Shown: positions 45,720-64,000 of the stretch, in pieces | Numbering within the stretch: the first letter of the stretch is position 1 | Layout of the letters: every line of letters begins with the position of its first letter | IMG/VR virus record: IMGVR_UViG_3300033555_000001 | Location: 224,001-288,000 of that record | Direction: 5' to 3' (one strand) | Origin: a virus | Lineage: Duplodnaviria > Caudoviricetes | DNA length: 64,000 nt | Position numbers and translations under genes: made by a program | Notes under the pieces: model-generated | The model's database searches: none | What the model was told of the DNA's origin: nothing | What the model saw: only the letters and a program-made list of their open reading frames with translations

Positions 45720-45722
45720 ATC

Positions 45723-45917
45723 ATGACGCATCAAACAGAAACATATCTTTCATTTGCCGAAATAACTTCATTAATTAGGAAGTCGGTAAAAACCCCAGTC
45801 GGAACTGTTGCCACCTATGTAGAGATTCATGTCGGTGATGGTACTTTATTTGGCATCAAAACCGTAACTGGTGCTACTGTTATATTTGAACCACTTGCAA
45901 AAGCCGCTGATGAATAA
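45723..45917 (+). CDS. hypothetical protein
   Basis: AAGG RBS. Confidence 0.6.
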   Translation: MTHQTETYLSFAEITSLIRKSVKTPVGTVATYVEIHVGDGTLFGIKTVTGATVIFEPLAKAADE

Positions 45918-46551
45918 TACAGCTGAATCCAATCCGCACGTTAACTTTATTGCTAAGTCTGAGTACTCAAACAGTCGGGTAAACAGTTCTAGCGATAATT
46001 TATATTTTTGCAAGTACTCAGTCATTAATCCGACTGAGCTCTTTACACCTGGAGAATTTCCAGTTCCTGCGATTTTTGCACACTCACTTGCGCGCATTGG
46101 GACACCGTTTGATATTGGGCTCAGTATCATAGCACCATTATGTGGAGGCCACAAGGTGACATCGGGCTCTGAGGCACGTCACCGAAATAAAACAGCTTTT
46201 GCCCTGACAGTTGCGCAGTGCAAAAAGATGAGTGTTAAAGAATTGGCTCTGGCCCTTAGAAATATCCGATTTAATTATGTGACAACTCGCGCAGTAGAGC
46301 TTGGTTATACAGAAGAACTATACGCTGCGCTATTTCCAGTTGAACAAGAAGAATTTGATTACGGTTTAAGTCTTATCAACAATCTAAACTTTGCTGCGCA
46401 GGCGCAAGCAATTTTTGATACTGTGCGGTCAATTTCTACTGCGCCGGTAATCAGCCCAACAGATTCGGTCGTGATAGAAGTAAACGAAAGTGGGCTGCAG
46501 TCCGCGCAAATCAGCGGTCGCGAGTGGACCTCTATCTATTTGGCCCGTTGA
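45910..46551 (+). CDS. hypothetical protein
   Basis: ATG 45910 preferred over track start 45871. Confidence 0.65.
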   Translation: MNNTAESNPHVNFIAKSEYSNSRVNSSSDNLYFCKYSVINPTELFTPGEFPVPAIFAHSLARIGTPFDIGLSIIAPLCGGHKVTSGSEARHRNKTAFALTVAQCKKMSVKELALALRNIRFNYVTTRAVELGYTEELYAALFPVEQEEFDYGLSLINNLNFAAQAQAIFDTVRSISTAPVISPTDSVVIEVNESGLQSAQISGREWTSIYLAR

Positions 46552-46648
46552 AATGATCAGGTTATAATTAAAATACCAAGTGATCACAAATTACTGTGAC
46601 CCCGGCGAGTGACAGACACAAACCGAAACTAATGATAAGGAGTTTATC

Positions 46649-50454: not shown

Positions 50455-50840
50455 GTAAAACAGCGTAAACTCAGTTTTTGAAAAGTTGAACAGGACGGGA
50501 GAGTCGGAGCTCCCCACCTCCACCAAAAGCGCTCTAGTAAGTCTGCAACGCGATCAGACTTTGAAGGCGGGAAACTTGGACTAAGCGTGACGCCTCTAAC
50601 AATTCTCTTAAGGGATTGATTTTGGGAGAGCCAAGTACTAGAGTGTTTTTGATGGGGGTGAATTGGAATCGACTGGCAAAATAGTAAACTACAGAGCGCT
50701 CGAGAGATGACCGACGTAATCGGCATAAAAACCTTAAATGCAAATGATAGCGCATTTTACGGAGACACACGCCTAGCAGCGTGATGCCCGCGAGGCTAAC
50801 CACCTTGTCACCGAACGGTAGGTAAGAAGTTTTACCGCTT
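50455..50840 (+). ncRNA. ssrA: circularly permuted (two-piece) tmRNA; tag ANDSAFYGDTRLAA
   Basis: Acceptor 3' end GGAC-GGGAG/CTCCC-CACCTCC-ACCA at 50493-50525 precedes the 5' end GGGGGTG-AATTGGAATCGAC at 50654; G3-U70 pair; tag 50740-50784; outer boundaries approximate. Confidence 0.88.
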
Positions 50841-50870
50841 CAAAGGGCCTTAGGGTCCTTTGTTGTTTTC
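50841..50870 (+). terminator. intrinsic terminator after tmRNA
   Basis: CAAAGGGCC/GGTCCTTTG then TTGTTTT. Confidence 0.7.
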
Positions 50871-50937
50871 TGGTCCCAGAAATACAACCCTCCGCGCACC
50901 CGTAAATATCTTACTATAAATTAATACTGGAGAAATC

Positions 50938-51375
50938 ATGATCATAGATAATAGAGTTACCGCAAGCGTGCTGGATGACGCAGCACGGTGCGCGGCTGAT
51001 GGTAAAAAAGTAGTTGTGCTAACGCAGCGCTTTTCGCAGACTTTCTGGATACTCGCCGAACTGCAGAGCAGAATGCATTATTTGGCTAGCACAGACATAA
51101 CAATAATAGGTTTTTACAATATTGCGAAGCGTAGAATTATGGTAAGCACGGGTGGGTCCATTATGGTACGCGCAATGGATCAATCGCCAGATCAGTTACG
51201 TGGGCATACGATCGATAAGCTGTTTATTAATGCTTCATCAGATTTTAAGCTGCCACCAGAAGTACTTGAGCTGCAACACAGAATTATGAGCACGGCCAGT
51301 GTGACCGCGGAAGCTGAAGCGCTGGCCGTATCTGTTGATGCGGTCAAGCCAAGACGCAAATTTTCTTCACGCTGA
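50938..51375 (+). CDS. hypothetical protein, degenerate terminase-ATPase-like fragment
   Basis: GGSI.V......DQLRG..ID.LFIN; no Walker A. Confidence 0.4.
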   Translation: MIIDNRVTASVLDDAARCAADGKKVVVLTQRFSQTFWILAELQSRMHYLASTDITIIGFYNIAKRRIMVSTGGSIMVRAMDQSPDQLRGHTIDKLFINASSDFKLPPEVLELQHRIMSTASVTAEAEALAVSVDAVKPRRKFSSR

Positions 51376-51406
51376 TTAACCTAGTAAATTAGAGAAGGTA
51401 AAACTG

Positions 51407-51889
51407 ATGAAGTCAACGAATCACGGTGTGCAGCAAAGCGATCGAGCCACTTTCATGCAGCTTATAGCTGGCACAGTTATTAATTGTATTGAAAACGGCA
51501 AAGACGCAGTTGTACTCTGTGGTACCGAGATCGGCGCGCCTACTCCACATGAATTGGCTGAAGAGACGTTTAATATGTACACTACCGCCAACGGTTATCA
51601 GCCAGTCAAAGATCTTACGGGTCTAGCGCTGTGGGACATAAGAACGTGTAACATAGGTCAATTTGTTTCAACAGCTGATGTGAACTTTGATCAGTTCAAT
51701 TCTCAAACCAGATTGTTGCACCATAAAGTTCGGCTTGCCATTATTACCACCACGGAAAATGATGATCAGCAAAAAATCTCTGAATTTTTATCAGTTATGG
51801 GAAAGCATTGCGCGAGTATTTCTTATCTCAGCTACAGTCCTGTAATAAAGCAATTTGAGAAAAAGCGCCGAATTTTTTCCTCACGCTAA
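51407..51889 (+). CDS. hypothetical protein
   Basis: AAGG RBS; C-terminus KRRIFSSR resembles the previous gene. Confidence 0.65.
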   Translation: MKSTNHGVQQSDRATFMQLIAGTVINCIENGKDAVVLCGTEIGAPTPHELAEETFNMYTTANGYQPVKDLTGLALWDIRTCNIGQFVSTADVNFDQFNSQTRLLHHKVRLAIITTTENDDQQKISEFLSVMGKHCASISYLSYSPVIKQFEKKRRIFSSR

Positions 51890-52031
51890 TAGCGAATTTA
51901 TAATGAAATATTCATTAAAGACCAGACCGGAATGAGACCGTTAAACACAGCGGGTCTTAAAACCGATGATGAAATAACTGCGGCGTTGTTTGGTACTTCG
52001 CAGGCTTAACCAACTCAAAAGGAAAAGACAA

Positions 52032-52490
52032 ATGGGCGCCGCATCCTATCTTCTAGTTAGCACCCTGCTCACAGCAGGAGTCATTGCAGGTGTTCACGCC
52101 GTGCAGCAAGAACCACCAAAAGAAGAGGCGTGGGTGCTTATTGGCAGTACCCAATTTGTCAGATTTGACGTTCACCGTGCAACCATTGAGACGAATGCAG
52201 AGACGCAGTCCGTGCAATTTGTACTTCGCTCGCAGTTTAAAGTCGCAGAAGACGGCGTAAAGACTGTGCTGGAACCAACTGTAATTTTGTGCAAATCTCG
52301 CACTATGATTACCACTGGGCGCTCGCACTATTCTGAGGCTCACAAAGAACTGCCCGCAAAACAGGGTGCTACCGTGTACGAAGACCCGGGGGTCAAAGGC
52401 CACGTTGTAACAGTGTTGATACAAATGGCGTGCGATCCAACTGATACCGTTACAGAAAAAAGAACTAAAAAATCAAACGTTAGTATATAA
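52032..52490 (+). CDS. secreted protein, surface-adhesin E-like
   Basis: ATG 52032, signal peptide, WVLIGS...D....., ILC..R, terminal C. Confidence 0.5.
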   Translation: MGAASYLLVSTLLTAGVIAGVHAVQQEPPKEEAWVLIGSTQFVRFDVHRATIETNAETQSVQFVLRSQFKVAEDGVKTVLEPTVILCKSRTMITTGRSHYSEAHKELPAKQGATVYEDPGVKGHVVTVLIQMACDPTDTVTEKRTKKSNVSI

Positions 52491-52499
52491 TTACTTATT

Positions 52500-52575
52500 G
52501 CCGATGTAGCTGAGCGGTTACAGCAGAGGATTCTAAATCCTAAGATCCCCGGTTCGAATCCGGGCATCGGCACCA
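52500..52575 (+). tRNA. amber suppressor tRNA (anticodon CUA)
   Basis: GCCGATG/CATCGGC acceptor, GCTG/CAGC D-stem, loop TT-CTA-AA, TTCGAAT, ACCA; 76 nt. Confidence 0.9.
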
Positions 52576-52600
52576 TAGTTTAATTATAGCGAGGTCTATT

Positions 52601-52795
52601 ATGCTTACCACCACAGCAATTGCCTTAGTTTATTTTGTATTCGTCACTGCGGTTTATTTCTGTATTATTGCCGTGATAGTAAAAGATGGTCGAACTAACA
52701 CCACGCCCACAAAACGAAAATATAACTCAATCATCTTTTTCGCTGTTACCGTGTTCTATATTGTGTCAATGATTAGCAGCACGCTAACTTTCTGA
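52601..52795 (+). CDS. small membrane protein
   Basis: GAGG RBS, two TM. Confidence 0.65.
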   Translation: MLTTTAIALVYFVFVTAVYFCIIAVIVKDGRTNTTPTKRKYNSIIFFAVTVFYIVSMISSTLTF

Positions 52796-52839
52796 GCAAT
52801 TTAAACTTTAATTACGTTATAAGATATCTAAGAGACTCC

Positions 52840-53058
52840 ATGTTAGAAGATCCTAAACACGACATACCAGCTGTAAAGACACGGGCAACTTTAGTAACAG
52901 TAAGCAAAATTAAAAGTGCTGCTCTCAGACGCACTGTTATTGTTTTAACCTTTGTGCCAATGCTGACTGCTAATATAGTGTGTGTTGGTATTGCTGCGGT
53001 GAAGGGGCTGTTCAGAAATATAACTGTGGTATTTTCTACTGCGGTAAAACACTGGTAA
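52840..53058 (+). CDS. small membrane protein
   Basis: Hydrophobic central segment. Confidence 0.55.
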   Translation: MLEDPKHDIPAVKTRATLVTVSKIKSAALRRTVIVLTFVPMLTANIVCVGIAAVKGLFRNITVVFSTAVKHW

Positions 53059-53105
53059 TTTTACTACTTTAAAATATAAGACGCTATTTTATACACGGGA
53101 AATCA

Positions 53106-53519
53106 ATGAGCGTTATAGCTAACTTTGTGAATCGTTTATTTCCGTCTTTGGCGCATCATTTTGCTTCATCGTGCACGCTGCAGGTTTCAAAAGCAAATGC
53201 TCAGCAGCTTGAGGCTCTTGATATTGACAAGATACACATTGAATACCGGCCAATCATTGGCGCTCTAGTTCCACGCTTTTATTGGGGTGAAGGTGAAGGT
53301 GATCACTTTCTACCCGACGGTTATTTGCATTTGCCGACGGTTCCAATGATCATAACGCGGAAGGGGCAAAACAGCTATTCAGTCCGCGCTTTTAAAGAAC
53401 ATCAATCGATGAGCGCTGTGGAGTTTAATGGTTTTATCGCTCAGCTGATTATAGATGCAATTACCACGATCAATTATAAAAATTACCTGTTCGACAAACA
53501 CGCGACAAAAACCTGGTAA
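53106..53519 (+). CDS. hypothetical protein
   Basis: GGGA RBS. Confidence 0.65.
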   Translation: MSVIANFVNRLFPSLAHHFASSCTLQVSKANAQQLEALDIDKIHIEYRPIIGALVPRFYWGEGEGDHFLPDGYLHLPTVPMIITRKGQNSYSVRAFKEHQSMSAVEFNGFIAQLIIDAITTINYKNYLFDKHATKTW

Positions 53520-53689
53520 TTTTCCCGGACGGCTCTAAACTTACCGGCGCAACTGAACAAAAAATGGATACGGTGTTTGCGGTTACAAAATAACCAGTAC
53601 CTGTTAGTAACCTGAACTAATTTTATTTGATTCTGAAAACTGTATTAATATACAAGAGTACTAAAGATTAACCAACCACTGGAGTTAAC

Positions 53690-54040
53690 ATGAAGCACTA
53701 GATTGAAAATCAGAAAACATATTTGTACGCAATCTCTCGCCGAGATATTCCTCTCGCGCAACAGGGAATTCAAGCAGCTCATGCTGGAATTGAATTTGCC
53801 TATCAGTACGGTCGCCCTGCCGATCACCATTCCTCGTATATTCATTTAACTGTTCGCAACAAAGAACACCTTGAGCATCTCTGTGCGCAGCTTTTGGCGT
53901 GCGGCCAGCGTACGGCTGAATTCCACGAGCCATATCAAGATTGGGGCTTAACCGCAATTGCAACAATTTTAACAGAAGAAAATCGCCATTTACTTAAAGG
54001 CCTACAACTGTGGCGCCTACCAACTCAGGAGCAATCATGA
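53690..54040 (+). CDS. peptidyl-tRNA hydrolase 2 (Pth2)-like protein with in-frame TAG at codon 4
   Basis: GGAG-N5-ATG AAG CAC TAG ATT GAA... in frame with Y.ISRRDI...Q.IQAAHA...L.V....F.EP...GLTAIA. Confidence 0.75.
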
Positions 54041-54477
54041 ACTATACAATTGTAGCACACAGGGAAACTGATTCAGGTACTGACCGACGCGGTGATTACT
54101 ATCGTAACCCTGGCGATTTTTATTTTAGAGCATTTCAAGAAGATCAAAAAGGCGAGTTCATCAGCAAGTGGGCTGAGTTTAGTCTTGAAAATAATCACGA
54201 TGATTTACACGTTATGATTAACGGGCTGACAGAGGATGAATTCGCCGGCAGCACTGATCCGCTGGATGTTGCCAAATATTCTGAATTTGCAGCCATTACA
54301 GAATTAATGTATCTGAAGCGAGCGGTGCTTCATCATGAGCGTGCAGCAAAAGAAGCCGGTCGGCTGGGCCGTGAGACTGCTCAAAAAGCGGTGAATGAAA
54401 TTAAAAACAAGCTTGTTGCTCGCCAACAGGCTGAAGCTGAAATAATCAGATTACAAAACTCGCTGAGGAACCTATGA
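54037..54477 (+). CDS. hypothetical protein
   Basis: ATG 54037 with AGGAG RBS. Confidence 0.7.
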   Translation: MNYTIVAHRETDSGTDRRGDYYRNPGDFYFRAFQEDQKGEFISKWAEFSLENNHDDLHVMINGLTEDEFAGSTDPLDVAKYSEFAAITELMYLKRAVLHHERAAKEAGRLGRETAQKAVNEIKNKLVARQQAEAEIIRLQNSLRNL

Positions 54478-55025
54478 AAATTACACTGAACCAAAATCCG
54501 CTGCACGCAGTTGTAGAACTAGATGAGCGTGAAATTGCAGCACTTAGACAAAAGCTGATCATTGCTGATCTCGAAGACAGATTGGCTGAAGCCAGCTTTA
54601 GATTAACGGACGGAAAATATTTTAACCTCGAACTAGCTCGCAAATCTACCAAGCTTAGCTTTCTAGATGAAGACGGTGCTACCGGTGAACACGCTCAGGA
54701 GATTGATAGGCGCCTCAAGTACTATGTTGAGGCACTCACTGAGGTGCACGGTGGTGACTGCACGTGTATTCCGGCCTCATGTATGAAGTGCCATGCTGAA
54801 GAGATGCTTGGAATTGACACCGCACCGTACAGCAAGCACACTGGTAATTCTATTCAGTCTGCGTTTAGTAAACCTGGCACTACACTTGATGAAGCAATTG
54901 AGGTACTCCGCACGCCCATTGAGCCACAGAAAGGTTATGAACAGCACTTGGCGCGGTGGAATGTTCAAAGGGCACAGGCACTAATTGCCTTACTTGAACA
55001 CCAGAAAATGCTATCTGTCACCTAA
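54474..55025 (+). CDS. hypothetical protein
   Basis: H.GDCTC.P.SC.KC.AE Cys cluster. Confidence 0.75.
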   Translation: MKITLNQNPLHAVVELDEREIAALRQKLIIADLEDRLAEASFRLTDGKYFNLELARKSTKLSFLDEDGATGEHAQEIDRRLKYYVEALTEVHGGDCTCIPASCMKCHAEEMLGIDTAPYSKHTGNSIQSAFSKPGTTLDEAIEVLRTPIEPQKGYEQHLARWNVQRAQALIALLEHQKMLSVT

Positions 55026-55124
55026 TGCCTCTATAACGCGCTGTTTAGAAAAAGGACTATAATGTTATCTACAACAATATACCACGTATCACACATCACA
55101 AAAAATACCACAGGGAGAAATAGC

Positions 55125-55406
55125 ATGCAATTTACCACAAGAGAAGAATACCTGGCAGCAGTTGCGGCATGGAAACTAGAATACGCCAGTCTCGGCGCTG
55201 AAATACGTGCTCACCGAGAAGAGTTTAAAATGACCCAGCGTATCTTGTCAAGAGATGGAAGTAATTTTGGGCGCAACTTTGTGGCTATGTGGGAAGCCAC
55301 CCTAAAAATGGGCGGGCTGCGGCAAAGAGCGACCGAGCTTCTTGAAGACCGGGCTGCCAGTAAAAAGGCCTCTTATTCAGCGTACCTACAAAGTCTGCTG
55401 CCGTGA
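55125..55406 (+). CDS. hypothetical protein
   Basis: ATG 55125 with GGGAG RBS. Confidence 0.7.
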   Translation: MQFTTREEYLAAVAAWKLEYASLGAEIRAHREEFKMTQRILSRDGSNFGRNFVAMWEATLKMGGLRQRATELLEDRAASKKASYSAYLQSLLP

Positions 55407-55480
55407 TCCCGAAATCTTGACGAGTGCTCCGCGGGATAGGCGTATAATCAATCATGCCTTATTTCTAACGGGCAATAAAA

Positions 55481-55786
55481 ATGAATCAGCAAAACGAACG
55501 AGTTTGGTATACCGCAAAGCTGCTCCCGGCAGCGCAGGCAATTTTTACTGAGGGTTTTTACCCTGAACCCAAGGCTCGTACGGGTAATCAATATGTGTAC
55601 TTTACCCAAATCGATCCCACGCCGCTGAACGCCAAAGTGCTTGTTGCCTCGCGCCTGGCAGAGAATTCATTTCGCATGCTGACTGCTGACTTGGCAAAAT
55701 TTTGTCTTGAGCCCGGCGAAAAAGCAACTCGCGCCGAAATGAAGCAGTTAAACGAACTCAGCGCGCACCTAGAAAGAAATGTCTAA
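55481..55786 (+). CDS. hypothetical protein
   Basis: 101-aa ORF. Confidence 0.65.
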   Translation: MNQQNERVWYTAKLLPAAQAIFTEGFYPEPKARTGNQYVYFTQIDPTPLNAKVLVASRLAENSFRMLTADLAKFCLEPGEKATRAEMKQLNELSAHLERNV

Positions 55787-56297
55787 TACCGGGCGCCATC
55801 TTTTTATAGATTTAGAGGATACCGTCATTGAGCCGGTACTCAACGGCTGGGGGCGCACAGCTCTCTTGAACATCGAAAAAGTAAAGCGCTTTATCAAAGA
55901 ATTTAAACCAAATACCGTTAACATCTTTTCGTTTGCTATTTGGAATACAGCAGAACTTGATAAGTTTAATACACTGTGCCGCCCTGGATTAGAACAGGCA
56001 CTTGGCATTAAATTTAACGCAATTCCTACAGTAGATGACGACATTATTCCGATGTGCTGTAACGTGCTGGGCATTGGCCAGGGCGCTGTTGACTTTGACG
56101 ACTGCAGCACTTTCTGGGGAAAGCACGAGGCGTTCAGATTGAATATGCGTCACCTGGCCAAGGCTTCACAGAGACCACTTGAGGTTGCATTTCTGGATGA
56201 TGCAGTTTTTAACGAGAACTTTGAGTGGCCTGATCTGAAAATTTCCGGTCGTATAATCAATATTGATCTGATGCCTGATTGCGAGAGCGCTGCATGA
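55779..56297 (+). CDS. HAD-superfamily-like protein
   Basis: LFIDLEDTVI motif I, AFLDD motif IV. Confidence 0.55.
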   Translation: MSNTGRHLFIDLEDTVIEPVLNGWGRTALLNIEKVKRFIKEFKPNTVNIFSFAIWNTAELDKFNTLCRPGLEQALGIKFNAIPTVDDDIIPMCCNVLGIGQGAVDFDDCSTFWGKHEAFRLNMRHLAKASQRPLEVAFLDDAVFNENFEWPDLKISGRIINIDLMPDCESAA

Positions 56298-56851
56298 AAA
56301 CCTTTATTTTTGCTGCCTGTGTGCTGGCTGCTCCTGTTGCGCAGGCACAGCTGAGTGCTATCGCCCAGTATGATTTTAACAGGCAAGGTTCGCGGTCATG
56401 GACTGAAACCGCGCTTGGTATTGCGTTTGATACTGAGGTGGGCCGGGTGGACGCATCATTTATTAAAAACAGCGGCTTGCCCAATCAATCAACTGACGCG
56501 CACGGCTTTGAGCTTGGCTACAGCACGCAGCTTGACACAGCACTTGGTGCAGTAACCGGCCGGGTAGGATTTGGCCGCCGAAATTTAATTGACGGTAACC
56601 TTGGCTCTTTTACCGCAGTGCACCGGTATTACACGCTGAGTCTGGAACACAGCGCCGCGTTGTCCTCTAACATTAACACGTTTATTAATTTCAGACATCG
56701 TAATGGGCTTAACTCCGCGCCAGTAGATAACAGGCTCTCTGCAGGCTTTGATTTCTCTGTTGCCAGTATTACTGCCAGATTAGGCTATGGGGTAACCCGA
56801 TCAAGCAGCACCTCGCACGGCATACACACCTCAATCTCTTATAACTTTTAA
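56294..56851 (+). CDS. outer-membrane beta-barrel protein
   Basis: Signal peptide MKTFIFAACVLAAPVAQA, alternating amphipathic strands, terminal ISYNF. Confidence 0.7.
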   Translation: MKTFIFAACVLAAPVAQAQLSAIAQYDFNRQGSRSWTETALGIAFDTEVGRVDASFIKNSGLPNQSTDAHGFELGYSTQLDTALGAVTGRVGFGRRNLIDGNLGSFTAVHRYYTLSLEHSAALSSNINTFINFRHRNGLNSAPVDNRLSAGFDFSVASITARLGYGVTRSSSTSHGIHTSISYNF

Positions 56852-56860
56852 GGACTCAAC

Positions 56861-57169
56861 ATGGACATCAGATCTTTTAAACTTACTACTGGCGAAGAGC
56901 TTGTTGCGCAATTACTTCAAGAAACAAGCCGCGGATTCCTGGTAAAGAGCCCGCTGATTGTGCACATGATGCGCACTCCAGAGGGTCCTACTTTGGCGTT
57001 TGCACAGTGGTCACTGGTTCAAAAGCAGGGTGTAGAAGTCGAGTTACTTACTAGCGCGCTGGTGTCAGCTCCAGTCCAGTTACTGGATGAAGTATCAGAC
57101 AGCTATCTCCAGCAGACTACTGGAATTGCCCTGCCTCCAAAAGGCGGCAGCCAGATTTTGCTGAGCTAA
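56861..57169 (+). CDS. Sm-like fold protein
   Basis: FKLTTGEELVA....L.VK.PL...LAFAQW pattern of phage Sm-like proteins. Confidence 0.55.
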   Translation: MDIRSFKLTTGEELVAQLLQETSRGFLVKSPLIVHMMRTPEGPTLAFAQWSLVQKQGVEVELLTSALVSAPVQLLDEVSDSYLQQTTGIALPPKGGSQILLS

Positions 57170-57170
57170 C

Positions 57171-57509
57171 ATGGCTGATATTAAAATGCTGGTTGCTGAG
57201 ACCATTAAGCACTTGACAATTTTAGACGATGCGCACGGTACTGATGTGACGGATTTTCTGGAGAGTAGTATTAATGAGGCCAAAGACACCGGCCTGATGG
57301 ACGATCCTGTAGAAGCTGCAGAGTTTTTAGGTGAAGCTGTTGAATACACACCTGCGCAGCAGCGACAAAATCTGGCGAATTTTTTTGACGAGCAATTAAT
57401 AACTTTGGAGGCGGAGAGCCTGTGCAGAACTAGTGAACAACTAGAGCTGTGTCAAAAGCTCTTTTCATACCTGGTTGACCTCCTCAGCCCACCGCAGAAA
57501 TCAGGTTAA
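57171..57509 (+). CDS. acidic hypothetical protein
   Basis: 112-aa ORF. Confidence 0.65.
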   Translation: MADIKMLVAETIKHLTILDDAHGTDVTDFLESSINEAKDTGLMDDPVEAAEFLGEAVEYTPAQQRQNLANFFDEQLITLEAESLCRTSEQLELCQKLFSYLVDLLSPPQKSG

Positions 57510-57586
57510 CATTAAAGCAAATAGTATAAATAGAAATATAGTACGCGAGCGGCATCCTGCCACCCGCACATTTAAAAGGGCTTATC

Positions 57587-57766
57587 ATGGTCTCTATTGT
57601 CTTTACTCTTATTGTTATTGGCGTCTTGCTGTACTTGGTTGAGCGGTTTATTCCAATGGACGCTTCCATCAAAAACATCATTCGCATCGTTGTAGTTGTT
57701 GGTGTTGTCATTTGGCTGTTGCAAGTACTTGGTATCATCAGCGGCATGCCGCGCTTTGGCGGGTAA
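57587..57766 (+). CDS. small two-TM membrane protein (Thivi_2564-like, 59 aa)
   Basis: Not in the track; IVIGVLLYLVERFIPMDASIKNIIRIVVVV; TATAAATA at 57525-32. Confidence 0.65.
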   Translation: MVSIVFTLIVIGVLLYLVERFIPMDASIKNIIRIVVVVGVVIWLLQVLGIISGMPRFGG

Positions 57767-57792
57767 CAACCCGAATTAAACTTTGAAAGAAG

Positions 57793-57822
57793 TTTACACG
57801 TTTGCTAAATAAGTGCTATAAT
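57793..57822 (+). promoter_or_regulatory. sigma70-like promoter for the tRNA cluster
   Basis: TTTACA-N18-TATAAT. Confidence 0.55.
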
Positions 57823-58198
57823 GCTCTTGTAGCAGATTAATTGATTTACCCGCGGATCTCCGGTCCGCTCTCTTAACTAGGATTATGAATACACTTAGCA
57901 CATTACTAGCCGCGATATCAGGGACGAGTTTACTCGCCTCAATGTCACCCAGCGCGAGCACATATCCGCGAGTAAGGACTCTCAGCTAAAAATCATAATT
58001 TGATTACAGCCTCGAGGGTCCTGATGAAAGTCACGACCCTCGAGTTGCATCCGAAAGAAATTGCTGGACCTGGCGAAATAAATTGTACATGTAATAGAAG
58101 TAGAGTTATAATGAATCTCTGAACGCTGCGAACAACATCCAGCGAGTAACAAGATCTTTAACAACTTAGAACACTATTTGAGACTTAGAGATAGGTCT

Positions 58199-58327
58199 CA
58201 TTTCAAAGCAGTTTTACACTGTGGTGCGAGTACGGCTGATAGCCAAATGTCTGCACCATGTTGAATCTTCTGCCAAAGATGATCCGCTGCCTGGCAGGGC
58301 TATGGTTAGTTTAACTGCTTTGAAATG
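58199..58327 (+). ncRNA. unassigned structured RNA with pseudoknot
   Basis: 15-bp closing stem, internal stems, CTGCCA/TGGCAG loop pairing. Confidence 0.5.
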
Positions 58328-58334
58328 AAAATAT

Positions 58335-58421
58335 GTTGTATCGTCAGAGTTGGAGAGCTGAAGCGGTCTGTAAAATCGTTCGCGCACGCGTGAGTAGGTT
58401 CGAATCCTACATACAACACCA
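58335..58421 (+). tRNA. tRNA-Tyr(GTA)
   Basis: GTTGTAT/ATACAAC, CT-GTA-AA, long variable arm, ACCA. Confidence 0.88.
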
Positions 58422-58479
58422 GATTATTTGGTAGATGCGAAAATGCAAAAACCGCGGAGTAAAAATTAAAGGAAAATAA

Positions 58480-58713
58480 ATGAATATCTTAAGTCTACAA
58501 GAACAAATCTTAAGTCTACAAGAACACAGAGATGGTTTCTACGTGGTGAGTAACGTGGTGAGTGATGACGTTGGCGACACGATTTGCGTTACTGTTTTCA
58601 GACACAACGGTGAAAAATGGGTACGAAAAATTGGTTACCCAGGTGTTTTACCAACTCTTCCATTTGTTGATATAATGATGAATGAAGATCCACAACTTAA
58701 GACTTACGACTAG
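58480..58713 (+). CDS. hypothetical protein with internal 21-bp duplication (58486-58526)
   Basis: AAGGA RBS; ILSLQEQ ILSLQEH. Confidence 0.55.
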   Translation: MNILSLQEQILSLQEHRDGFYVVSNVVSDDVGDTICVTVFRHNGEKWVRKIGYPGVLPTLPFVDIMMNEDPQLKTYD

Positions 58714-58770
58714 AATTTTGCCAAGCGAGTAGCTCTCACTTGACGAATGTCGGGAGTAATTACCCTGACG

Positions 58771-58866
58771 AACTCTAAAGCTGATGAAATGGTAAACGTG
58801 GCTCCGATCAGGAGCCGAGCACACCGCAAGGTCCTCTTACAGGTTCGAGTCCTGTCCACCAGAGTT
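58771..58866 (+). pseudogene. degenerate Leu/Ser-type tRNA-like element
   Basis: Class-II D-loop and perfect T-arm, but 5-nt anticodon loop and mismatched acceptor. Confidence 0.5.
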
Positions 58867-58880
58867 CAATGAGATTTTAA

Positions 58881-58976
58881 CCGTACTGATGAGCTCTGTA
58901 GAGAGCGAAACGAACAGTGAACAGCCGATCGAGCGCTTGGTGGCAGCTCTCGACGCAGTAGCTGTCTCGTATACGG
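58881..58976 (+). ncRNA. type I hammerhead ribozyme
   Basis: CCGTA-CTGATGA-GCTCT/AGAGC-GAAA-CGA...TCG-TA-TACGG; cleavage predicted after 58971 (GUA). Confidence 0.85.
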
Positions 58977-59046
58977 GCTTGCCTAATGGGTAGGGAAACG
59001 CACTTGCAATGCGATGCTAGGAGATCGTTACTCCTCAGGTCCACCA
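58975..59046 (+). tRNA. tRNA-Ala(TGC), atypical
   Basis: GGGCTTG/CAGGTCC with G3-U70, CT-TGC-AA, ACCA; D region about 3 nt short. Confidence 0.65.
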
Positions 59047-59055
59047 GAATTTATT

Positions 59056-59141
59056 GTTGTTTTAGCTTAAGAAGAGCGTCGGGTCTGCCAATATTATTGG
59101 TGGACCGGGAGGAGTAGGTTCAAGTCCTACAGACAGCACCA
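59056..59141 (+). tRNA. tRNA-Gly(GCC)-like with 12-nt insertion in the anticodon loop
   Basis: GTTGTTT/AGACAGC, T-arm GTAGG/CCTAC, CT-GCC-A then insert. Confidence 0.45.
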
Positions 59142-59154
59142 GTTTTACAATTAA

Positions 59155-59228
59155 CAGAGATTATGATAGTGGTAGTCGTCCTCGTCTGGACCGAGGAAGC
59201 GGAAATTCGATTTTTCCATCTCTGACCA
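59155..59228 (+). tRNA. tRNA-Pro(TGG)
   Basis: CAGAGAT/ATCTCTG (C1-G72, A73), TC-TGG-AC. Confidence 0.78.
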
Positions 59229-59494
59229 ATTTTTACTACAGCACCTATTGTTCTGCACTCGCAAGAGTGGTCAGTAGCATCTGCCGAGGGTAATAATGTC
59301 AGTGAGAGTTGGTACTCTCTAGGGGTGAAAGAAGATGGTGGAACCAACTGCGACATGTGGAATGAGGCATGCGAGCGTTTCAAATCTCCTCAAAGTTAAG
59401 TCACTCACCAAGTGACAAATCTTTCTAGGGTGAAAAATCGCGCGTATCTAACGGATTTAGTAACCTCGGTCTGGTGTAATGCCAGTCAGAATAT

Positions 59495-59567
59495 GCAGGA
59501 TTTCTCCTGAGAGAGAACTCACCCTTCCAAGGTGATGGACCTGGTTTGAATCCAGGATCCTGCTCCA
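59495..59567 (+). tRNA. tRNA-Gly(TCC)
   Basis: GCAGGAT/ATCCTGC, CT-TCC-AA, U73-CCA; D-loop atypical. Confidence 0.78.
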
Positions 59568-59772
59568 CTATTAGAAGGATGGTGAGGTCGCACCTCACAA
59601 AGTCTCGGCTACTATAACTGCGCCGTCGGTTATTTTAAGGCGGCAAATAGAGACACCGGATCAAATCTTCGACCTAGTTGATCTACACAATCACACAAGT
59701 TAGTTCACTCTAAAGAACTGATTTGCTTAGCAGGTTTCGGTTCCCTGAGCTTGATAAAACCGTCAGATCAAC

Positions 59773-59849
59773 AGCGGGTTAGAGAAGAAGTCATCTCGCC
59801 GGCCTCATAAGCCGGAAATCACGTGGAGCATTTCCCGTACCCGCTACCA
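59773..59849 (+). tRNA. tRNA-Met(CAT)
   Basis: AGCGGGT/ACCCGCT, CCGGC-CTCATAA-GCCGG; atypical T-loop. Confidence 0.8.
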
Positions 59850-59936
59850 ATATGTTAACCTGCAATACTAGTAATAGTTTACGCGTTTTATTGTATAATT
59901 ACTCATCTTACTGCAGCGCTAACTAGGAGAAATACC

Positions 59937-60122
59937 ATGGCCGAAGGACAAGCAACAAAGGAAGCAACGCCGCCGCGTCTCAAGCTTCCAAAGAACTACA
60001 AGTGTTCCAAAGAGCTCAAGACTATTTTTGCCCTTTGTAATTTGTCAGGCGGTGAGAAGCGCGCCATGATGGTGGCACACGCTGCTTCGCTGGTCAAGCA
60101 AGTAACACGCGTTAAGTCGTAA
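59937..60122 (+). CDS. small basic protein
   Basis: AGGAG RBS; promoter TATAATTACTCATC at 59894. Confidence 0.7.
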   Translation: MAEGQATKEATPPRLKLPKNYKCSKELKTIFALCNLSGGEKRAMMVAHAASLVKQVTRVKS

Positions 60123-60134
60123 TACGGGGAAATT

Positions 60135-60443
60135 ATGAAGCACTTACTTTTAGCACTGTGTTTACTCCCAGGTATCTCTAGTGCTTCAACCTTTAGTAAT
60201 GAGGCAGTACCAGTACATGTGTCATGTGTTAGCAATTTAAAATCCGCGCATTGCGTGCTTGAGAATAAATTAGCTAAGCAAATTACCTGTGAAATACTTG
60301 TCAGCGCTGTTACCACTCATGTGGTACTCCGTAAAAGGGTATTTCAGAACATTCAACCAGGATACTTTGCTACCGTTCAAGTTCTTGCCACACCTGGCAC
60401 AGCGCTTAAACACTCTACTGGAACTGCACTCTGTATTTTGTAA
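60135..60443 (+). CDS. putative secreted Cys-containing protein
   Basis: Signal peptide MKHLLLALCLLPGISSA. Confidence 0.7.
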   Translation: MKHLLLALCLLPGISSASTFSNEAVPVHVSCVSNLKSAHCVLENKLAKQITCEILVSAVTTHVVLRKRVFQNIQPGYFATVQVLATPGTALKHSTGTALCIL

Positions 60444-60461
60444 AAGTTAAAACCGAATAAA

Positions 60462-60538
60462 GCCGGGCTGGCGCAATTGGCAGACGCGTATGCCTTAGGA
60501 GCATAATGTTCTCGGTTCGAGTCCGAGGTCCGGCACCA
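60462..60538 (+). tRNA. tRNA-Leu(TAG) with short variable loop
   Basis: GCCGGGC/GTCCGGC, CT-TAG-GA, 5-nt variable region. Confidence 0.82.
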
Positions 60539-60542
60539 ATAT

Positions 60543-60681
60543 GGATATCCCGGGATGGGGAATAATTAAGCAAGTAATTTAACCGGCGTTATTTCCGAGA
60601 GAATTACTTGGTGCGCACGTGACGACGTGTTAGCGACAAGTCTTAATTTTTCTAGCGGTTCAAGTCCGCTAATATCCGCCA
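60543..60681 (+). ncRNA. tRNA-like RNA with a branched insert replacing the anticodon loop
   Basis: GGATAT/ATATCC-GCCA acceptor, AGCGG-TTCAAGT-CCGCT T-arm, AATTAAG/CTTAATT stem. Confidence 0.55.
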
Positions 60682-60801
60682 AATTCGCCGAATGTGGTAG
60701 GCGTTTTCAGCGGAGTAACGTTCGAAGCTGATAGCTAAGTCAAAAACAACTCTTCGGGATTATCAGACTAAATCTCAATAAATTCTAGTACCAGAATAAA
60801 T

Positions 60802-60877
60802 GCCGGTTTAGCTCAGTTGTTAGAGCGTCTGATTTGTAATCAGGATGTCGTGGGTTCGAATCCTGCAACCGGCACCA
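60802..60877 (+). tRNA. tRNA-Thr(TGT)
   Basis: Canonical cloverleaf, TT-TGT-AA. Confidence 0.92.
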
Positions 60878-61056
60878 AGTCTTAACTCAAGCAGTTCGAG
60901 CCCGCTAATATTTGCCATTCAATATTAATATAATAACAACATAATAGCGCTAAATAGTAGCGTGCTGGTTCAAGTCCAGCACAAGAACATAGCGCAGCCC
61001 CCGGAACTGCGTCTGTATAAGTTAAATCCGGGCTAATTTAACTTACGAGGTTAAAA

Positions 61057-61983
61057 ATGAAAGTTCTACTCTTGGCGCTCCTGTTCAGTGCTTCGGTGGC
61101 AGCCGCACCAAAAAATACCACCGCAAAAATTCCAGTACAAGACCGACCAGAGTTTCAGGAAACGCTGAACTTGCAAATCCTCCTGGATCGGGCTCATTTT
61201 TCAACGGGTGAAATTGACGGTGTTCCAAGCGTTAAAATTACGCGAGCACTCAAAGCATTTCAGGAACAAAATAATTTAGAAATTACCGGAGTGCCTGACG
61301 CTGGAACTACGCAAGCGCTAAACGCGACGGCCGAGAATATGCTGATCGACTATACGTTAACTGCAGCTGATTTAGATGTCAAGTTAGTAAAGAGTATACC
61401 TCGCACCATGCTGGCAAAGAGTAAACTACAACGCCTGCGCTATACTTCACTCTCTGAAGCACTGAGTGAACGTTTTCAGGTAAGCCCTAATGTTTTTAAA
61501 TTTCTGAATCCAACTGCAACATTCTCTGTTGGCAGCACCGTTAAAATTCCGGCAGTGGGAGGACCTCTCGCGGCTCAAGTAAGCTCAATAGTGGTCAGTA
61601 AAGCAAACAGCTCACTCACTCTGCGAGATGCGCAGAATAAAATTGTCGGGTATTACCCAGTAACACTTGGTGCTCAAGTATCTCCATCGCCGAGTGGAAC
61701 TTTAAAAGTTAAGTCAATCACAAAGAATCCGTATTACAATTACGATCCAGAGCGCTTTGAGAGTAAAGGCACAACAATTAAAGTAACGCTTCCACCAGGT
61801 CCAAACAACCCAGTAGGTTTAGTCTGGATTGCGCTGTCAAAGCGGCACTATGGAATTCATGGAACGCCCGATCCGTCTAAGATTTCAAAGACGAATTCAC
61901 ACGGCTGTATTAGATTAGTAAACTGGGATGCACTTGAAGTTGCAGATGCTGTTGCAGCGGGCGTGCCAGTTTTGATAGAATAA
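61057..61983 (+). CDS. L,D-transpeptidase (YkuD) with peptidoglycan-binding domain
   Basis: Signal peptide, GEIDG...ALKAFQ...TG PG-binding, YGIHGT...SHGCIRL. Confidence 0.9.
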   Translation: MKVLLLALLFSASVAAAPKNTTAKIPVQDRPEFQETLNLQILLDRAHFSTGEIDGVPSVKITRALKAFQEQNNLEITGVPDAGTTQALNATAENMLIDYTLTAADLDVKLVKSIPRTMLAKSKLQRLRYTSLSEALSERFQVSPNVFKFLNPTATFSVGSTVKIPAVGGPLAAQVSSIVVSKANSSLTLRDAQNKIVGYYPVTLGAQVSPSPSGTLKVKSITKNPYYNYDPERFESKGTTIKVTLPPGPNNPVGLVWIALSKRHYGIHGTPDPSKISKTNSHGCIRLVNWDALEVADAVAAGVPVLIE

Positions 61984-61987
61984 AAAC

Positions 61988-62061
61988 GCCCCGTTAGCCG
62001 AGTGATAAGGCCCTTACTTGTAGTAAGGAGATCGTCTGTTTGATTCAGACACGGGGCACCA
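61988..62061 (+). tRNA. tRNA-Thr(TGT), second copy, divergent
   Basis: GCCCCGT/ACGGGGC, CCTTA-CTTGTAG-TAAGG. Confidence 0.82.
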
Positions 62062-62065
62062 AGTT

Positions 62066-62183
62066 CTAGTGTTAGCATAGTGGAAGTGCAACCCTCTAGG
62101 GTAGGATTCCGTTCGATTCGGATGCGAGTATGGTAACCGTAAATCCGCAAGGGGAGGCGTCAGTTCGAATCTGGCACACTGGA
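62066..62183 (+). ncRNA. double-elbow tRNA-like RNA without anticodon
   Basis: CTAGTGT/ACACTGG acceptor enclosing two D-like and two T-loop arms. Confidence 0.45.
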
Positions 62184-62191
62184 AATAATAT

Positions 62192-62286
62192 GGTAAACGG
62201 CGCTGGTGCGCGGCGAATTCTTATAAAATTCGGAGATCGGGCAGATCGCCTGGAACGGCTGGGTTCGAATCCCAGGTTTACTACCA
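62192..62286 (+). tRNA. tRNA(TAT), Ile-like, atypical with large variable region
   Basis: GGTAAAC/GTTTACT, GAATT-CTTATAA-AATTC, CTGGG-TTCGAAT-CCCAG, ACCA. Confidence 0.55.
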
Positions 62287-62294
62287 AAACATAT

Positions 62295-62379
62295 GCGCCG
62301 TTGGTGGAACGGTAGACACACCGGGTTTAAGCCCCGACGAGCATGTCTCATGAGAGTTCGAATCTCTCACGGCGCACCA
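62295..62379 (+). tRNA. tRNA-Leu(TAA)
   Basis: GCGCCGT/ACGGCGC, TT-TAA-GC, long variable arm. Confidence 0.9.
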
Positions 62380-62440
62380 TCTTCAGGATCACTAAAAATT
62401 ACGCAGTGTTATAATGATTTCCTAACCTGGGAGGTTTATC

Positions 62441-63118
62441 ATGGCTGAAACTGTTTTTACTGATATGAGCGCAACGCAAAATCGCGTACTGCGAAATACA
62501 TACTGGTTGTTAGCGCTCTCGTTACTGCCAACAATTGCTGGTGCTTGGGCAGGTGTTGCATTTGGTTTTAGCGCACTGTTAATCGGCAGCCCAATTCTAT
62601 CTTTTGTATTATTTCTGGCGGTCGCGTTTGGATTCATCTTTGCGATTAACGCAACAAAAGATTCGGCGCTTGGAGTACCAATCCTGTTAGCCTTTACATT
62701 CTTCATGGGGCTGATCATGTCACCGCTGATTGGCACTGTGCTAGGCATGAAAAACGGCGTTAGCTTGGTATCGCTTGCCGCTGGCGGAACAGCTCTTATC
62801 TTTGCAGTAATGGCGATTGTGTCTTCAACGCTGAAACGTGATATTTCGGGCTGGGGAAAATATCTAACCATTGGTGTAGTCTGTTTGATTGTAGCAATGT
62901 TAGCAAATATGTGGTTCAAGCTGCCGCTCTTTGCACTGATAATTTCGGTTATTGCGGTGGTAATTTTTTCAGCCTTTTTGCTGTACGATTTGAAGCGAAT
63001 CGTTGATGGAGGCGAAACAAACTACGTCATGGCTACGCTTGCAATTTATCTTGATTTAGTTAATATCTTTCAGAATCTGCTCGCTGTTCTTGGGCTGACC
63101 GCCGGAAACGACGATTAG
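62441..63118 (+). CDS. yccA: Bax inhibitor-1 / YccA family membrane protein
   Basis: NRVLRNTYWLLALS, seven TM, GGETNYVMATL.IYLDLVNIF. Confidence 0.92.
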   Translation: MAETVFTDMSATQNRVLRNTYWLLALSLLPTIAGAWAGVAFGFSALLIGSPILSFVLFLAVAFGFIFAINATKDSALGVPILLAFTFFMGLIMSPLIGTVLGMKNGVSLVSLAAGGTALIFAVMAIVSSTLKRDISGWGKYLTIGVVCLIVAMLANMWFKLPLFALIISVIAVVIFSAFLLYDLKRIVDGGETNYVMATLAIYLDLVNIFQNLLAVLGLTAGNDD

Positions 63119-63124
63119 AAATTT

Positions 63125-63212
63125 GGAGACGTGGTAGAGTGGCCTAATGCACTCGGTTGCTAACCGAGAGGGTGTAACAGCCCCGTGAGTTCGAATCTCA
63201 CCGTCTCCGCCA
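63125..63212 (+). tRNA. tRNA-Ser(GCT)
   Basis: GGAGACG/CGTCTCC, TT-GCT-AA, long arm, G73. Confidence 0.93.
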
Positions 63213-63244
63213 GAATTAAAATTCTATAATATTAGAAAACTAAA

Positions 63245-63592
63245 ATGAAAAATATCTTTTTAGGACTTGGCTTATATCTTTTGTCTATAAGCATAAATGC
63301 ACAAACGCTTTATACTGTAGATAATGCTTACTCTGATCTGCACAGTACCCCCGTTAAATACCAAGGAGCTGTCGGTTATATTATGGGCGTAATACATACT
63401 GAATTTTTATCGGATCCACTGGTGTGTACCCCGCATAAATACACACTTGATGAATATAGAGATGCAAGTTATAAAACTGCATCACTGATGGTTGCGGTTT
63501 TAAAAACGCCAGCACCAATGATTCAGAGAAAAGAACCAGTCATAATTTTTATTTCTAACAACATGCAAAAATTGTTTCCTTGCACAAAATAG
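63245..63592 (+). CDS. secreted Rap1a/Tai-like immunity-family protein
   Basis: Signal peptide, GYIMGV...C.P, terminal LFPC. Confidence 0.55.
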   Translation: MKNIFLGLGLYLLSISINAQTLYTVDNAYSDLHSTPVKYQGAVGYIMGVIHTEFLSDPLVCTPHKYTLDEYRDASYKTASLMVAVLKTPAPMIQRKEPVIIFISNNMQKLFPCTK

Positions 63593-63678
63593 AAAGTTTT
63601 CCCTGATGGTGATGGGGTCCGTTTCGAAAGCGGTTCTATCGGCTAATACCGATAAGGGTTCGATTCCCTAACTTTCTG
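63591..63678 (+). tRNA. tRNA-Ser(CGA), no encoded CCA
   Basis: AGAAAGT/ACTTTCT, TT-CGA-AA, TATCGG/CCGATA long arm, G73. Confidence 0.75.
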
Positions 63679-63739
63679 GGCTGAATTTATAAACCCTGAT
63701 TTAACCAAATTGTTGATACAGAATGGAGTACTATTAAGT

Positions 63740-63814
63740 ATGTTTCTTATCACACTTTTAGTGTTTTATGCAGGTGTAGTTACCGGATTGTTTATCTCCA
63801 GTTGGAGAAAGTAG
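63740..63814 (+). CDS. small membrane peptide (24 aa)
   Basis: GGAG RBS; single TM. Confidence 0.35.
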   Translation: MFLITLLVFYAGVVTGLFISSWRK

Positions 63815-63824
63815 TACAGAATAT

Positions 63825-63916
63825 GGAAACTAAACCTTGATGGTGATAGGTCCCGCTTGGAAAGCGGGTAGAGCGGTTAATAGCCGCTTTCGGTTCGATT
63901 CCGATGGTTTCCGCCA
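63825..63916 (+). tRNA. tRNA-Ser(GGA)
   Basis: GGAAACT/GGTTTCC, TT-GGA-AA, long arm, GCCA. Confidence 0.9.
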
Positions 63917-64000
63917 AGTTGAGTGGTTCTCTGGTTAGCGCCGGAGACGTGGTAGACTGCGCAGTCATGTCTGATCCGTTGCAACGGTGAGGATTTCTAA

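Follow-up and report, generated by a model that had tools for sequence, protein, structure and literature searches.

An early in-frame amber codon in a Pth2-fold gene and a linked suppressor-type tRNA at the end of a jumbo-phage tRNA region

A permuted tmRNA, a tRNA(CUA) and an interrupted Pth2-fold gene

The window analysed here is a stretch of 64,000 nucleotides of viral DNA, positions 224001–288000 of a linear virus contig of 310,728 bases (IMGVR_UViG_3300033555_000001; henceforth G000) that is 87% complete. By eye its open reading frames (ORFs) include T4-like replication genes, NrdA/B, nicotinamide adenine dinucleotide (NAD)-salvage genes and an RNA ligase; the NrdA shares no more than 55% identity with those of cultured phages, and the source is therefore an uncultured jumbo phage. 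We focus on the end of the window (50455–64000), where the original prediction had placed a translation-rescue island, and in particular on a Pth2-fold gene at 53690–54040 with a TAG at its fourth codon. The main features of this interval described below are on the plus strand.

The interval opens with a transfer-messenger RNA (tmRNA; 50462–50784) recovered by Rfam RF04321 at 104.9 bits, as had been predicted. It is of the permuted, two-piece form, with the 3′ acceptor half upstream of the 5′ half, a G3:U70 pair, an encoded CCA, a resume codon and a tag frame specifying ANDSAFYGDTRLAA; a terminator-like hairpin (50841–50862) stands behind it. Its intervening segment (50527–50653) is unusually long, at about 125 nucleotides, and had no homologue among the sequences searched. 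The tmRNA is followed by the likewise predicted amber suppressor-type tRNA(CUA) (52500–52575), a canonical cloverleaf scoring 70.3 bits with A73 and an encoded CCA. Homologues of this tRNA have the anticodon loop and mostly A73 in common, while the acceptor stem is not shared. Presumably, U35 and A73 point to the lysyl- or glutaminyl-tRNA synthetase (LysRS or GlnRS) as the charging enzyme; a common anticodon loop and A73 with a variable acceptor sequence fit such charging, with no particular residue being needed.

The Pth2-like gene begins with ATG-AAG-CAC-TAG, behind which an intact Pth2-fold frame continues; with readthrough of the TAG, the gene would span 116 codons. The initiation region (53681–53701), which we term the gate, comprises a GGAG Shine–Dalgarno sequence (SD), the ATG at 53690, a Lys and a His codon and the TAG at 53699–53701, followed by A. 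The SD at 53681 suits the ATG at 53690, whereas the alternative TTG at 53723 lacks an SD and would truncate the first strand of the fold. The link between the suppressor-type tRNA and the Pth2-like gene is an in-frame amber codon, which the original prediction, listing the two side by side, had overlooked.

The early stop recurs across diverged phages

To assess the gate, we collected 65 distinct homologues of the Pth2-like protein, drawn from IMG/VR, GenBank phages and genome contigs. Of these, 39 are interrupted in frame by a stop at codons 2–9 (38 TAG and one TGA, compared with a TAG share of just 23 in 202 among the ordinary stops of G000), in most cases at codons 2–5, and the codons around it vary; many of these gated homologues are merely 30–45% identical to the window protein. 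An SD at normal spacing precedes 33 of the 39 gated genes, and an alternative ATG, GTG or TTG behind the stop is found in just three, each time inside the first strand. A purine directly after UAG is a context known to favour amber suppression. Such a purine follows the stop in 38/39 gated genes as against 11/23 ordinary TAG stops (Fisher p 6e-6, kinship ignored). Gated members are found in both halves of the family tree, the gate having changed state at least 5 to 8 times. Its carriers include the cultured phages ME3, RsoM2USA, BF, fHe-Yen9-04, GAP32, Arash and XbC2, in which the gene is unannotated or was started internally and thereby truncated. Most of the GenBank records examined either omit the gene or show it truncated, pointing to a blind spot in annotation.

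A genome-wide reassignment of TAG (code 15) was ruled out as the source of this pattern: the core genes are intact under the standard code (code 11), and 37 ORFs of at least 150 amino acids end in TAG. A pseudogene or a sequencing error, with the suppressor and the odd RNAs further downstream as decaying remnants, could be entertained in so far as several tRNAs here (Ala, Pro and the initiator) are more degenerate than their orthologues and one relative has a disrupted Pth2-like copy; yet the same type of stop stands at shifting positions before an intact, conserved frame in 39 diverged phages, by which this explanation is already largely refuted for the Pth2-like gene and is, as a whole, extremely improbable.

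A further alternative is that a functional minigene terminates at the TAG and that the Pth2-like frame is reached by reinitiation at a nearby, possibly near-cognate, start, the suppressor being linked for another cause. This would accommodate ATT, a rare start codon, directly behind the stop in 13 of the 39 gated genes, the TAG-ATG of one homologue (L048) and the TAG-GTG of Bxz1/Myrna, where the SD suits the GTG. However, the other 26 gated genes have AAC, AAT, GTT, ATC, ACA and other codons in that place, the minigene codons are not conserved, and reinitiation would call neither for TAG over TAA nor for the concerted change of stop and tRNA described below. We accordingly regard it as very unlikely. 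The ATT and Bxz1/Myrna cases nevertheless also weigh against a suppression gate, as do the start behind the TAG in RaK2 and the 26 of 65 homologues that are ungated, among them those of Bxz1/Myrna and of XacN1, the latter with its domain inside a 283-codon frame remote from that phage's Sup tRNAs; moreover, the gate counts are drawn from related homologues and are not independent trials. Taken together, we consider it very likely that the stop-codon gate is real. The recurrence of the gate further suggests that the Pth2-like protein is probably made only when a tRNA overrides the stop.

Linkage of the gate with a cognate suppressor-type tRNA

For 28 of the 36 TAG-gated genes examined for linkage, a CUA tRNA lies within the fetched locus. 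The other eight comprise three cultured phages with a CUA tRNA-like match 3–13 kb away, one with a candidate CUA tRNA elsewhere in the contig and four that are small fragments (2–10%). The sole TGA-gated gene, in the complete phage genome G001 (L044), carries TGA at codon 4 and has two tRNA(UCA) 1.2 kb upstream, while the CUA tRNA pattern had no match in that complete genome. This joint switch of the stop to TGA and of the tRNA to UCA is the best natural control for the pairing of gate and tRNA. The conserved gate and this co-switch give indirect support to the prediction that the suppressor is aminoacylated and reads UAG in vivo. Ungated homologues, too, often adjoin a CUA or UCA tRNA, which indicates that the association of the protein with the tRNA is deeper than the gate. 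The order tmRNA, tRNA(CUA), Pth2-like gene is repeated in many relatives, where a permuted tmRNA often precedes the Pth2-like gene by 1.5–5 kb.

Some individual loci merit mention. In LR756501, a 735-kb phage (L165), the Pth2-like gene has two in-frame TAGs, the first at codon 3 and the other further on within the body, and two CUA tRNAs lie 2.4 kb downstream of it. Another locus (L012, 9290–10290) holds two Pth2-like copies, of which the gated one is disrupted after about 40 codons and the ungated one is intact. In XacN1, ORF088, which stands beside the Sup tRNAs, was examined as a possible Pth2-like gene and is not that gene.

A Pth2 fold without the canonical catalytic residues

The original prediction had called the product a Pth2, which is correct for the fold and not for the canonical enzyme: the protein is divergent, and its likely start at 53690 precedes the in-frame TAG. 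The AlphaFold2 model has a predicted local distance difference test (pLDDT) score of 88 and matches Pth2 structures at a template-modelling (TM) score of ~0.7, the Foldseek matches being to archaeal and human Pth2 (E 2e-5 to 4e-4). In sequence the resemblance to the Pth2 of archaea, eukaryotes and jumbo phages is weak; 19 of 23 family members match PF01981 at E values up to 0.1, and the PF01981 profile had no match to the window protein itself.

The catalytic residues of Pth2 are, we take it, a Lys, an Asp and a Thr (K18/D86/T90 numbering). Aligned with MJ0051 and with the phage's own canonical-type Pth2 as references, the family has Q (21/23), E (21/23) and a gap where K, D and T stand. In their place it presents its own motifs, RxD, QQxxQxxH and FxEP, with R10, D12, Q18, Q21, H24 and F71 invariant. 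Since the catalytic positions are replaced in this way, the protein may hydrolyse nothing, a point that weighs against the circuit proposed below. The canonical-type Pth2 is a separate gene at G000 288965–289366 (L021:1965–2366), about 1 kb past the window end, with K, D and T present and with no gate. For jumbo-phage Pth2, ribosome rescue after tRNA cleavage has been proposed (Iyer et al. 2021, PMC7824862).

A possible feedback circuit for stop-codon readthrough

As an overall explanation we moderately favour an ordinary end of a tRNA region that contains one conserved module of a suppressor and a gated Pth2-fold protein. In the proposed mechanism, the Pth2-fold gene would be translatable only if the phage tRNA(CUA) reads the in-frame UAG at codon 4. 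A host synthetase would, with high probability, charge the tRNA(CUA), which would then compete with release factor 1 (RF1) at the gate, such that the level of the protein reports readthrough. As for the protein, it could act on the suppressor itself, either by removing an amino acid or short peptide from it or by binding it, and thereby cap readthrough by negative feedback. We put this forward tentatively, as the likeliest of the functions considered and still less probable than not. It is favoured because the linkage runs deeper than the gate, because the fold acts on tRNA esters, because a canonical-type Pth2 already exists in the genome and because the logic would resemble that of prfB. The gene for release factor 2 (RF2), prfB, contains an early in-frame UGA that is bypassed by a +1 frameshift, through which RF2 limits itself. 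Both cases have an early in-frame stop in a translation-factor gene, with the bypass set by competition at that stop; the bypass here would use a dedicated suppressor tRNA instead of a frameshift, and feedback by the product is a proposal.

The adjoining tmRNA may, in addition, clear non-stop complexes arising from readthrough, although we hold this to be doubtful and the link is not universal among the relatives. In Escherichia coli, tmRNA deals with readthrough caused by suppressors, according to the account of Ueda 2002 in PMC8012679; such a role may explain the frequent position of tmRNAs upstream of the Pth2-like gene. More broadly, it is conceivable, if somewhat unlikely, that standard-code phages of many host groups carry a self-regulating circuit in which the suppressor and the gated Pth2-fold protein jointly sense and set readthrough.

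Several points stand against this scheme. Many relatives have no tmRNA near the Pth2-like gene. A scan of G000 for a second amber-gated gene (SD of at least 4 nucleotides, at least 70 codons after the stop) returned none that was convincing. Because of this, the feedback loop leaves unexplained why the phage keeps the suppressor, or wants readthrough at all.

It is here that the main rival comes in, namely that the gate responds to weakened termination: with RF1 activity lowered by host defence, a toxin or phage take-over, the suppressor would win the UAG, free ribosomes stalled at amber stops and turn on a back-up recycler of peptidyl-tRNA. The sequence evidence for the gate serves this explanation equally, the suppressor would have a purpose under it, and it suits the nearby tmRNA; furthermore, the stop is mostly at codons 2–5, where drop-off of peptidyl-tRNA is frequent (lambda bar minigenes, PMC8012679). 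Against it stand the replaced catalytic residues and the ungated canonical-type Pth2 already in the genome. Moreover, a shortage of Pth would presumably trap the suppressor and close the gate, the opposite of what sensing accumulated peptidyl-tRNA would require. On balance, we consider this rival unlikely; feedback on the suppressor remains the reading that we prefer.

Related combinations have been described. Code-15 phages have suppressor tRNAs, and their in-frame stops have been proposed to serve translational regulation (Borges et al., bioRxiv 10.1101/2021.08.26.457843). The present phage shares with them the suppressor tRNA and the in-frame stop, but it uses the standard code, TAG ends many of its genes, a single gene is gated (at codon 4), no release factor was found in it and the gated product is a tRNA-acting fold as opposed to a lysis or structural protein. 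Closer is XacN1, a standard-code jumbo phage with CUA tRNAs for which no target gene was identified (PMC5852040). Both are non-recoded phages with CUA tRNAs, and here there is a conserved candidate target, whereas XacN1's own homologue is apparently not gated in the same manner. In the literature on phage Pth2 in connection with suppressors or amber codons we found no description of the gate, most subscription journals being outside the coverage. The conserved gated gene thus provides a concrete candidate client for the targetless amber suppressors of standard-code phages (PMC5852040). If the protein does control the suppressor, it would constitute a naturally occurring feedback control on the readthrough of stop codons, of relevance to the evolution of phage recoding and to genetic-code expansion.

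A predicted hammerhead ribozyme ahead of a tRNA

A hammerhead had been predicted in the interval, and our analysis corroborates it as a type I hammerhead at 58881–58976 with an extended stem III bearing a conserved GAA/AGUA internal loop. It has the CUGANGA and GAAA core (complete at 58886–58910), an NUH cleavage site, stems I–III and an open stem I, and the hammerhead is also the minimum-energy fold. The predicted cut falls after GUA (58971), 3 nucleotides before G1 of a tRNA-Ala, with stem I overlapping G1–G2 of the tRNA. The Rfam hammerhead models had no match up to E 10, probably because of the extension of stem III.

The same variant, with the extended stem III and its GAA/AGUA loop, is found in four relatives. 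Over these five related phages, and with the structure set by the analyst, all 93 of 93 cells were paired and 8 of 19 pairs had double changes, a level attained by none of 500 shuffles. A covariance model recovered a sixth copy (L192, G015), whose core is intact and which stands 6 nucleotides before the same short-D tRNA-Ala; its stem II has an insert of about 120 nucleotides. In all six phages, a tRNA or tRNA-like gene begins 3–19 nucleotides after the predicted cut. The hammerhead is absent from the other complete relatives and is hence optional. From this placement it is likely that the ribozyme would cut a polycistronic transcript directly before a tRNA. A DNA pattern search also picked up short hammerheads that precede ORFs in contigs without relation to this phage (L014, L016, L018 and L019); they are not this variant.

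Phage hammerheads are known (Perreault 2011, PMC3088659), and theta ribozymes sit at the 3′ ends of phage tRNAs (PMC10879173). As with the theta ribozymes, a self-cleaving type of RNA, with self-cleavage here being predicted, abuts a phage tRNA. Unlike theta ribozymes, it is a hammerhead and not similar to the hepatitis delta virus ribozyme, and it would cut on the 5′ side, 3–19 nucleotides before the tRNA; it has the extended stem III with the conserved internal loop, and it is not beside the suppressor. We found no literature on 5′ tRNA processing by hammerheads. If it does cut ahead of tRNAs, it would be the 5′ counterpart of the theta ribozymes.

The tRNA array and its tRNA-shaped RNAs

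Roughly 14 tRNAs with an anticodon lie in the interval, close to the dozen predicted: 11 were found by ARAGORN (including the CUA tRNA), the initiator by Rfam, and the short-D Ala and Gly tRNAs at a relaxed score. The array contains tRNA-Tyr(GUA) (58335–58421, from the ARAGORN/tRNA scan); the short-D tRNA-Ala(UGC) with G3:U70 (58975–59046), which is diverged in this genome; tRNA-Pro(UGG) with C33 (within 59155–59850); the short-D tRNA-Gly(UCC) (59495–59567); the initiator tRNA(CAU) with a degenerate T loop (59773–59849, Rfam); tRNA-Leu(UAG) with a short variable loop (60462–60538); two tRNA-Thr(UGU) (60802–62061) flanking the gene for a YkuD/peptidoglycan-binding L,D-transpeptidase (61057–61983); an irregular long-arm tRNA(UAU) with tRNA-Leu(UAA) (62192–62379); and tRNA-Ser(GCU) with two further tRNA-Ser, CGA (63591–63678) and GGA (63825–63916), at 63125–63916. 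The last two have an 8-bp acceptor stem, a 4-bp T stem, a long variable arm, G73 and a Ser anticodon, and so fall in the class of (8/4) tRNA-Ser, which is known from phages (Mukai et al., PMC5389517). The short-D Ala and Gly tRNAs, the long-arm UAU tRNA and the 8/4 Ser tRNAs are conserved in relatives.

Among the tRNAs are four tRNA-shaped RNAs with a broken or absent anticodon, at least as many having been predicted. The first (58748–58868) is of the Leu type, with a 5′ hairpin, an acceptor stem that an internal loop interrupts and no CCA end, and its anticodon gives way to a short loop that is not conserved; it is 81% identical over 127 nucleotides to a sequence of the same architecture in L001 (18204–18330). 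The second (59056–59141; Rfam tRNA 37.4 bits, z −3.7) has CCA and an anticodon arm drawn out into an 11-bp hairpin with a 3-nucleotide loop. In the third (60543–60681), which ends in G-CCA, a two-hairpin insert replaces the anticodon loop, and a partial, decayed copy is seen near 60880–60920. In the fourth (62066–62183), an insert comprising a second T-loop hairpin and a D-loop-like motif takes the place of the anticodon loop; the G010 homologue retains the motifs of this insert but no anticodon. For an intron-containing tRNA the indications are mixed: the window sequence allows a Pro(AGG) loop to be drawn, the sole homologue does not keep it, and RtcB had no match in the 87%-complete G000.

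For the second and third RNAs, no homologue was found in 16 arrays. Lack of conservation, on which the original prediction was to stand or fall, was therefore not the rule for the odd RNAs: two of these four have a homologue with the same defect and two have none, and several others are conserved as well. Beyond weak tRNA matches, the four belong to no Rfam family. They are non-decoding tRNA-shaped RNAs, some conserved and some probably decaying. Oversized tRNA-shaped RNAs occur in the arrays of most relatives, which makes such RNAs a feature of the phage group. Irregular UAU tRNAs and tRNA-like RNAs of the T4 rnaC/rnaD type occur in tRNA clusters; the present RNAs may be likened to these by type and by their occurrence in a tRNA cluster.

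Two RNAs not shaped like tRNAs accompany them. One (58199–58327) is strongly folded, with a 15-bp closing stem (z −4.4), and has no homologue in the 16 arrays. The other, a conserved motif (60684–60790) directly behind the third tRNA-shaped RNA, recurs in three relatives (G004, G010 and G001; E 2e-7 to 1e-4) and has no Rfam match. The structured RNAs of the interval had no Rfam match up to E 10 to GOLLD, ROOL, YrlA, RNase P, signal recognition particle or 6S RNA. A Y RNA (YrlA) acting with Ro60 was considered and rejected, given no PF05731 in the 87%-complete genome, no Rfam YrlA match and arms in normal tRNA order. The stretches 59235–59490 and 59570–59770 are non-coding with several hairpins and had neither an Rfam match nor a detected homologue.

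The arrays of relatives have peculiarities of their own. Three of them (L175, L176 and L181, from G005, G004 and G013) contain a second Leu-type class of tRNA-shaped RNA, 110–124 nucleotides long and ending in A-CCA, whose variable region includes an additional T-loop hairpin. In L172 (G003 array, reverse strand 9169–9276), L181 and L187 there are tRNAs (e.g., Asn GUU) in which the D loop or the site behind position 33 carries a removable-looking insert, possibly a small tRNA intron.

The end of a larger tRNA region

The original prediction saw in the whole 13.5 kb a coordinated counter to host defences, with replacement tRNAs, anticodon-less decoys and ribosome rescue by tmRNA and Pth2. Replacement tRNAs and Pth2 have indeed been proposed to act against RNA-cutting defences (PMC7824862, PMC11273794), and this framing is largely known for jumbo phages. 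It is partly supported here: every part is present, all on one strand; the order of tmRNA, CUA tRNA and Pth2-like gene and the position of the array are kept in relatives, most of whose arrays also have the oversized RNAs. However, the array content and order vary freely among relatives, in some of which the array is upstream of the Pth2-like gene, and about 5.8 kb of mostly unrelated ORFs part the CUA tRNA from the array. Unrelated ORFs are also interspersed through the interval as a whole (YkuD, Bax1-I and about 15 hypotheticals), and two of the four tRNA mimics had no homologue in 16 arrays. The array also goes on elsewhere in the genome, with a further 14–17 tRNAs in the contig (G000 1.8–11.6 kb) and another Ser tRNA, like the canonical-type Pth2, just past the window end. 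As to partners in rescue, RtcB, RF-1, SmpB and Ro60/TROVE (PF05731) had no match in the 87%-complete G000, by which their absence is not proven. Finally, RNAs without an anticodon loop would be poor decoys for anticodon nucleases and would better suit proteins that bind the acceptor or the elbow. Hence, the recurrent gene order stands while coordination and a decoy role are unsupported, and we judge a coordinated island unlikely. The interval 50455–64000 is the left end of a larger jumbo-phage tRNA region and not an isolated island; apart from the gated module, its tRNA array, tmRNA and 8/4 Ser tRNAs are ordinary for jumbo phages.

The predicted Sm-like protein is present as an ORF at 56861–57169 (phrog_527), and such a fold is plausible from the modelled structure (Atlas feature score 0.89; TM 0.78 to an Atlas cluster with 11% Sm_like), although there was no Pfam match, including to the Sm-like family PF16243. 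Relatives of this ORF were looked for and none was confirmed, and there is no evidence tying it to a rescue role. The best sigma-70-like promoter match (57793–57822; 11/12, extended −10) lies at the head of the RNA array, the total number of such matches being not above chance. Also at the head of the array (57896–58045) are a short ORF of 34 codons and a GAAA-capped hairpin that is kept in three relatives.

Three genes within the RNA region are envelope-related; they encode a probable outer-membrane beta-barrel protein (56294–56851, by eye), the YkuD L,D-transpeptidase mentioned above and a Bax1-I/YccA-like protein (62441–63118). A CCA-adding-enzyme-like ORF is at G000 301268. Elsewhere in the window, a NAD-salvage pair (NadM-Nudix-like and NadV-like; 44553–48178) and an Rnl5-type RNA ligase (37686–38981) were recognized by eye, and five tandem paralogues of a helical-repeat protein are encoded on the minus strand at 31660–34397, with a sixth at 29476.

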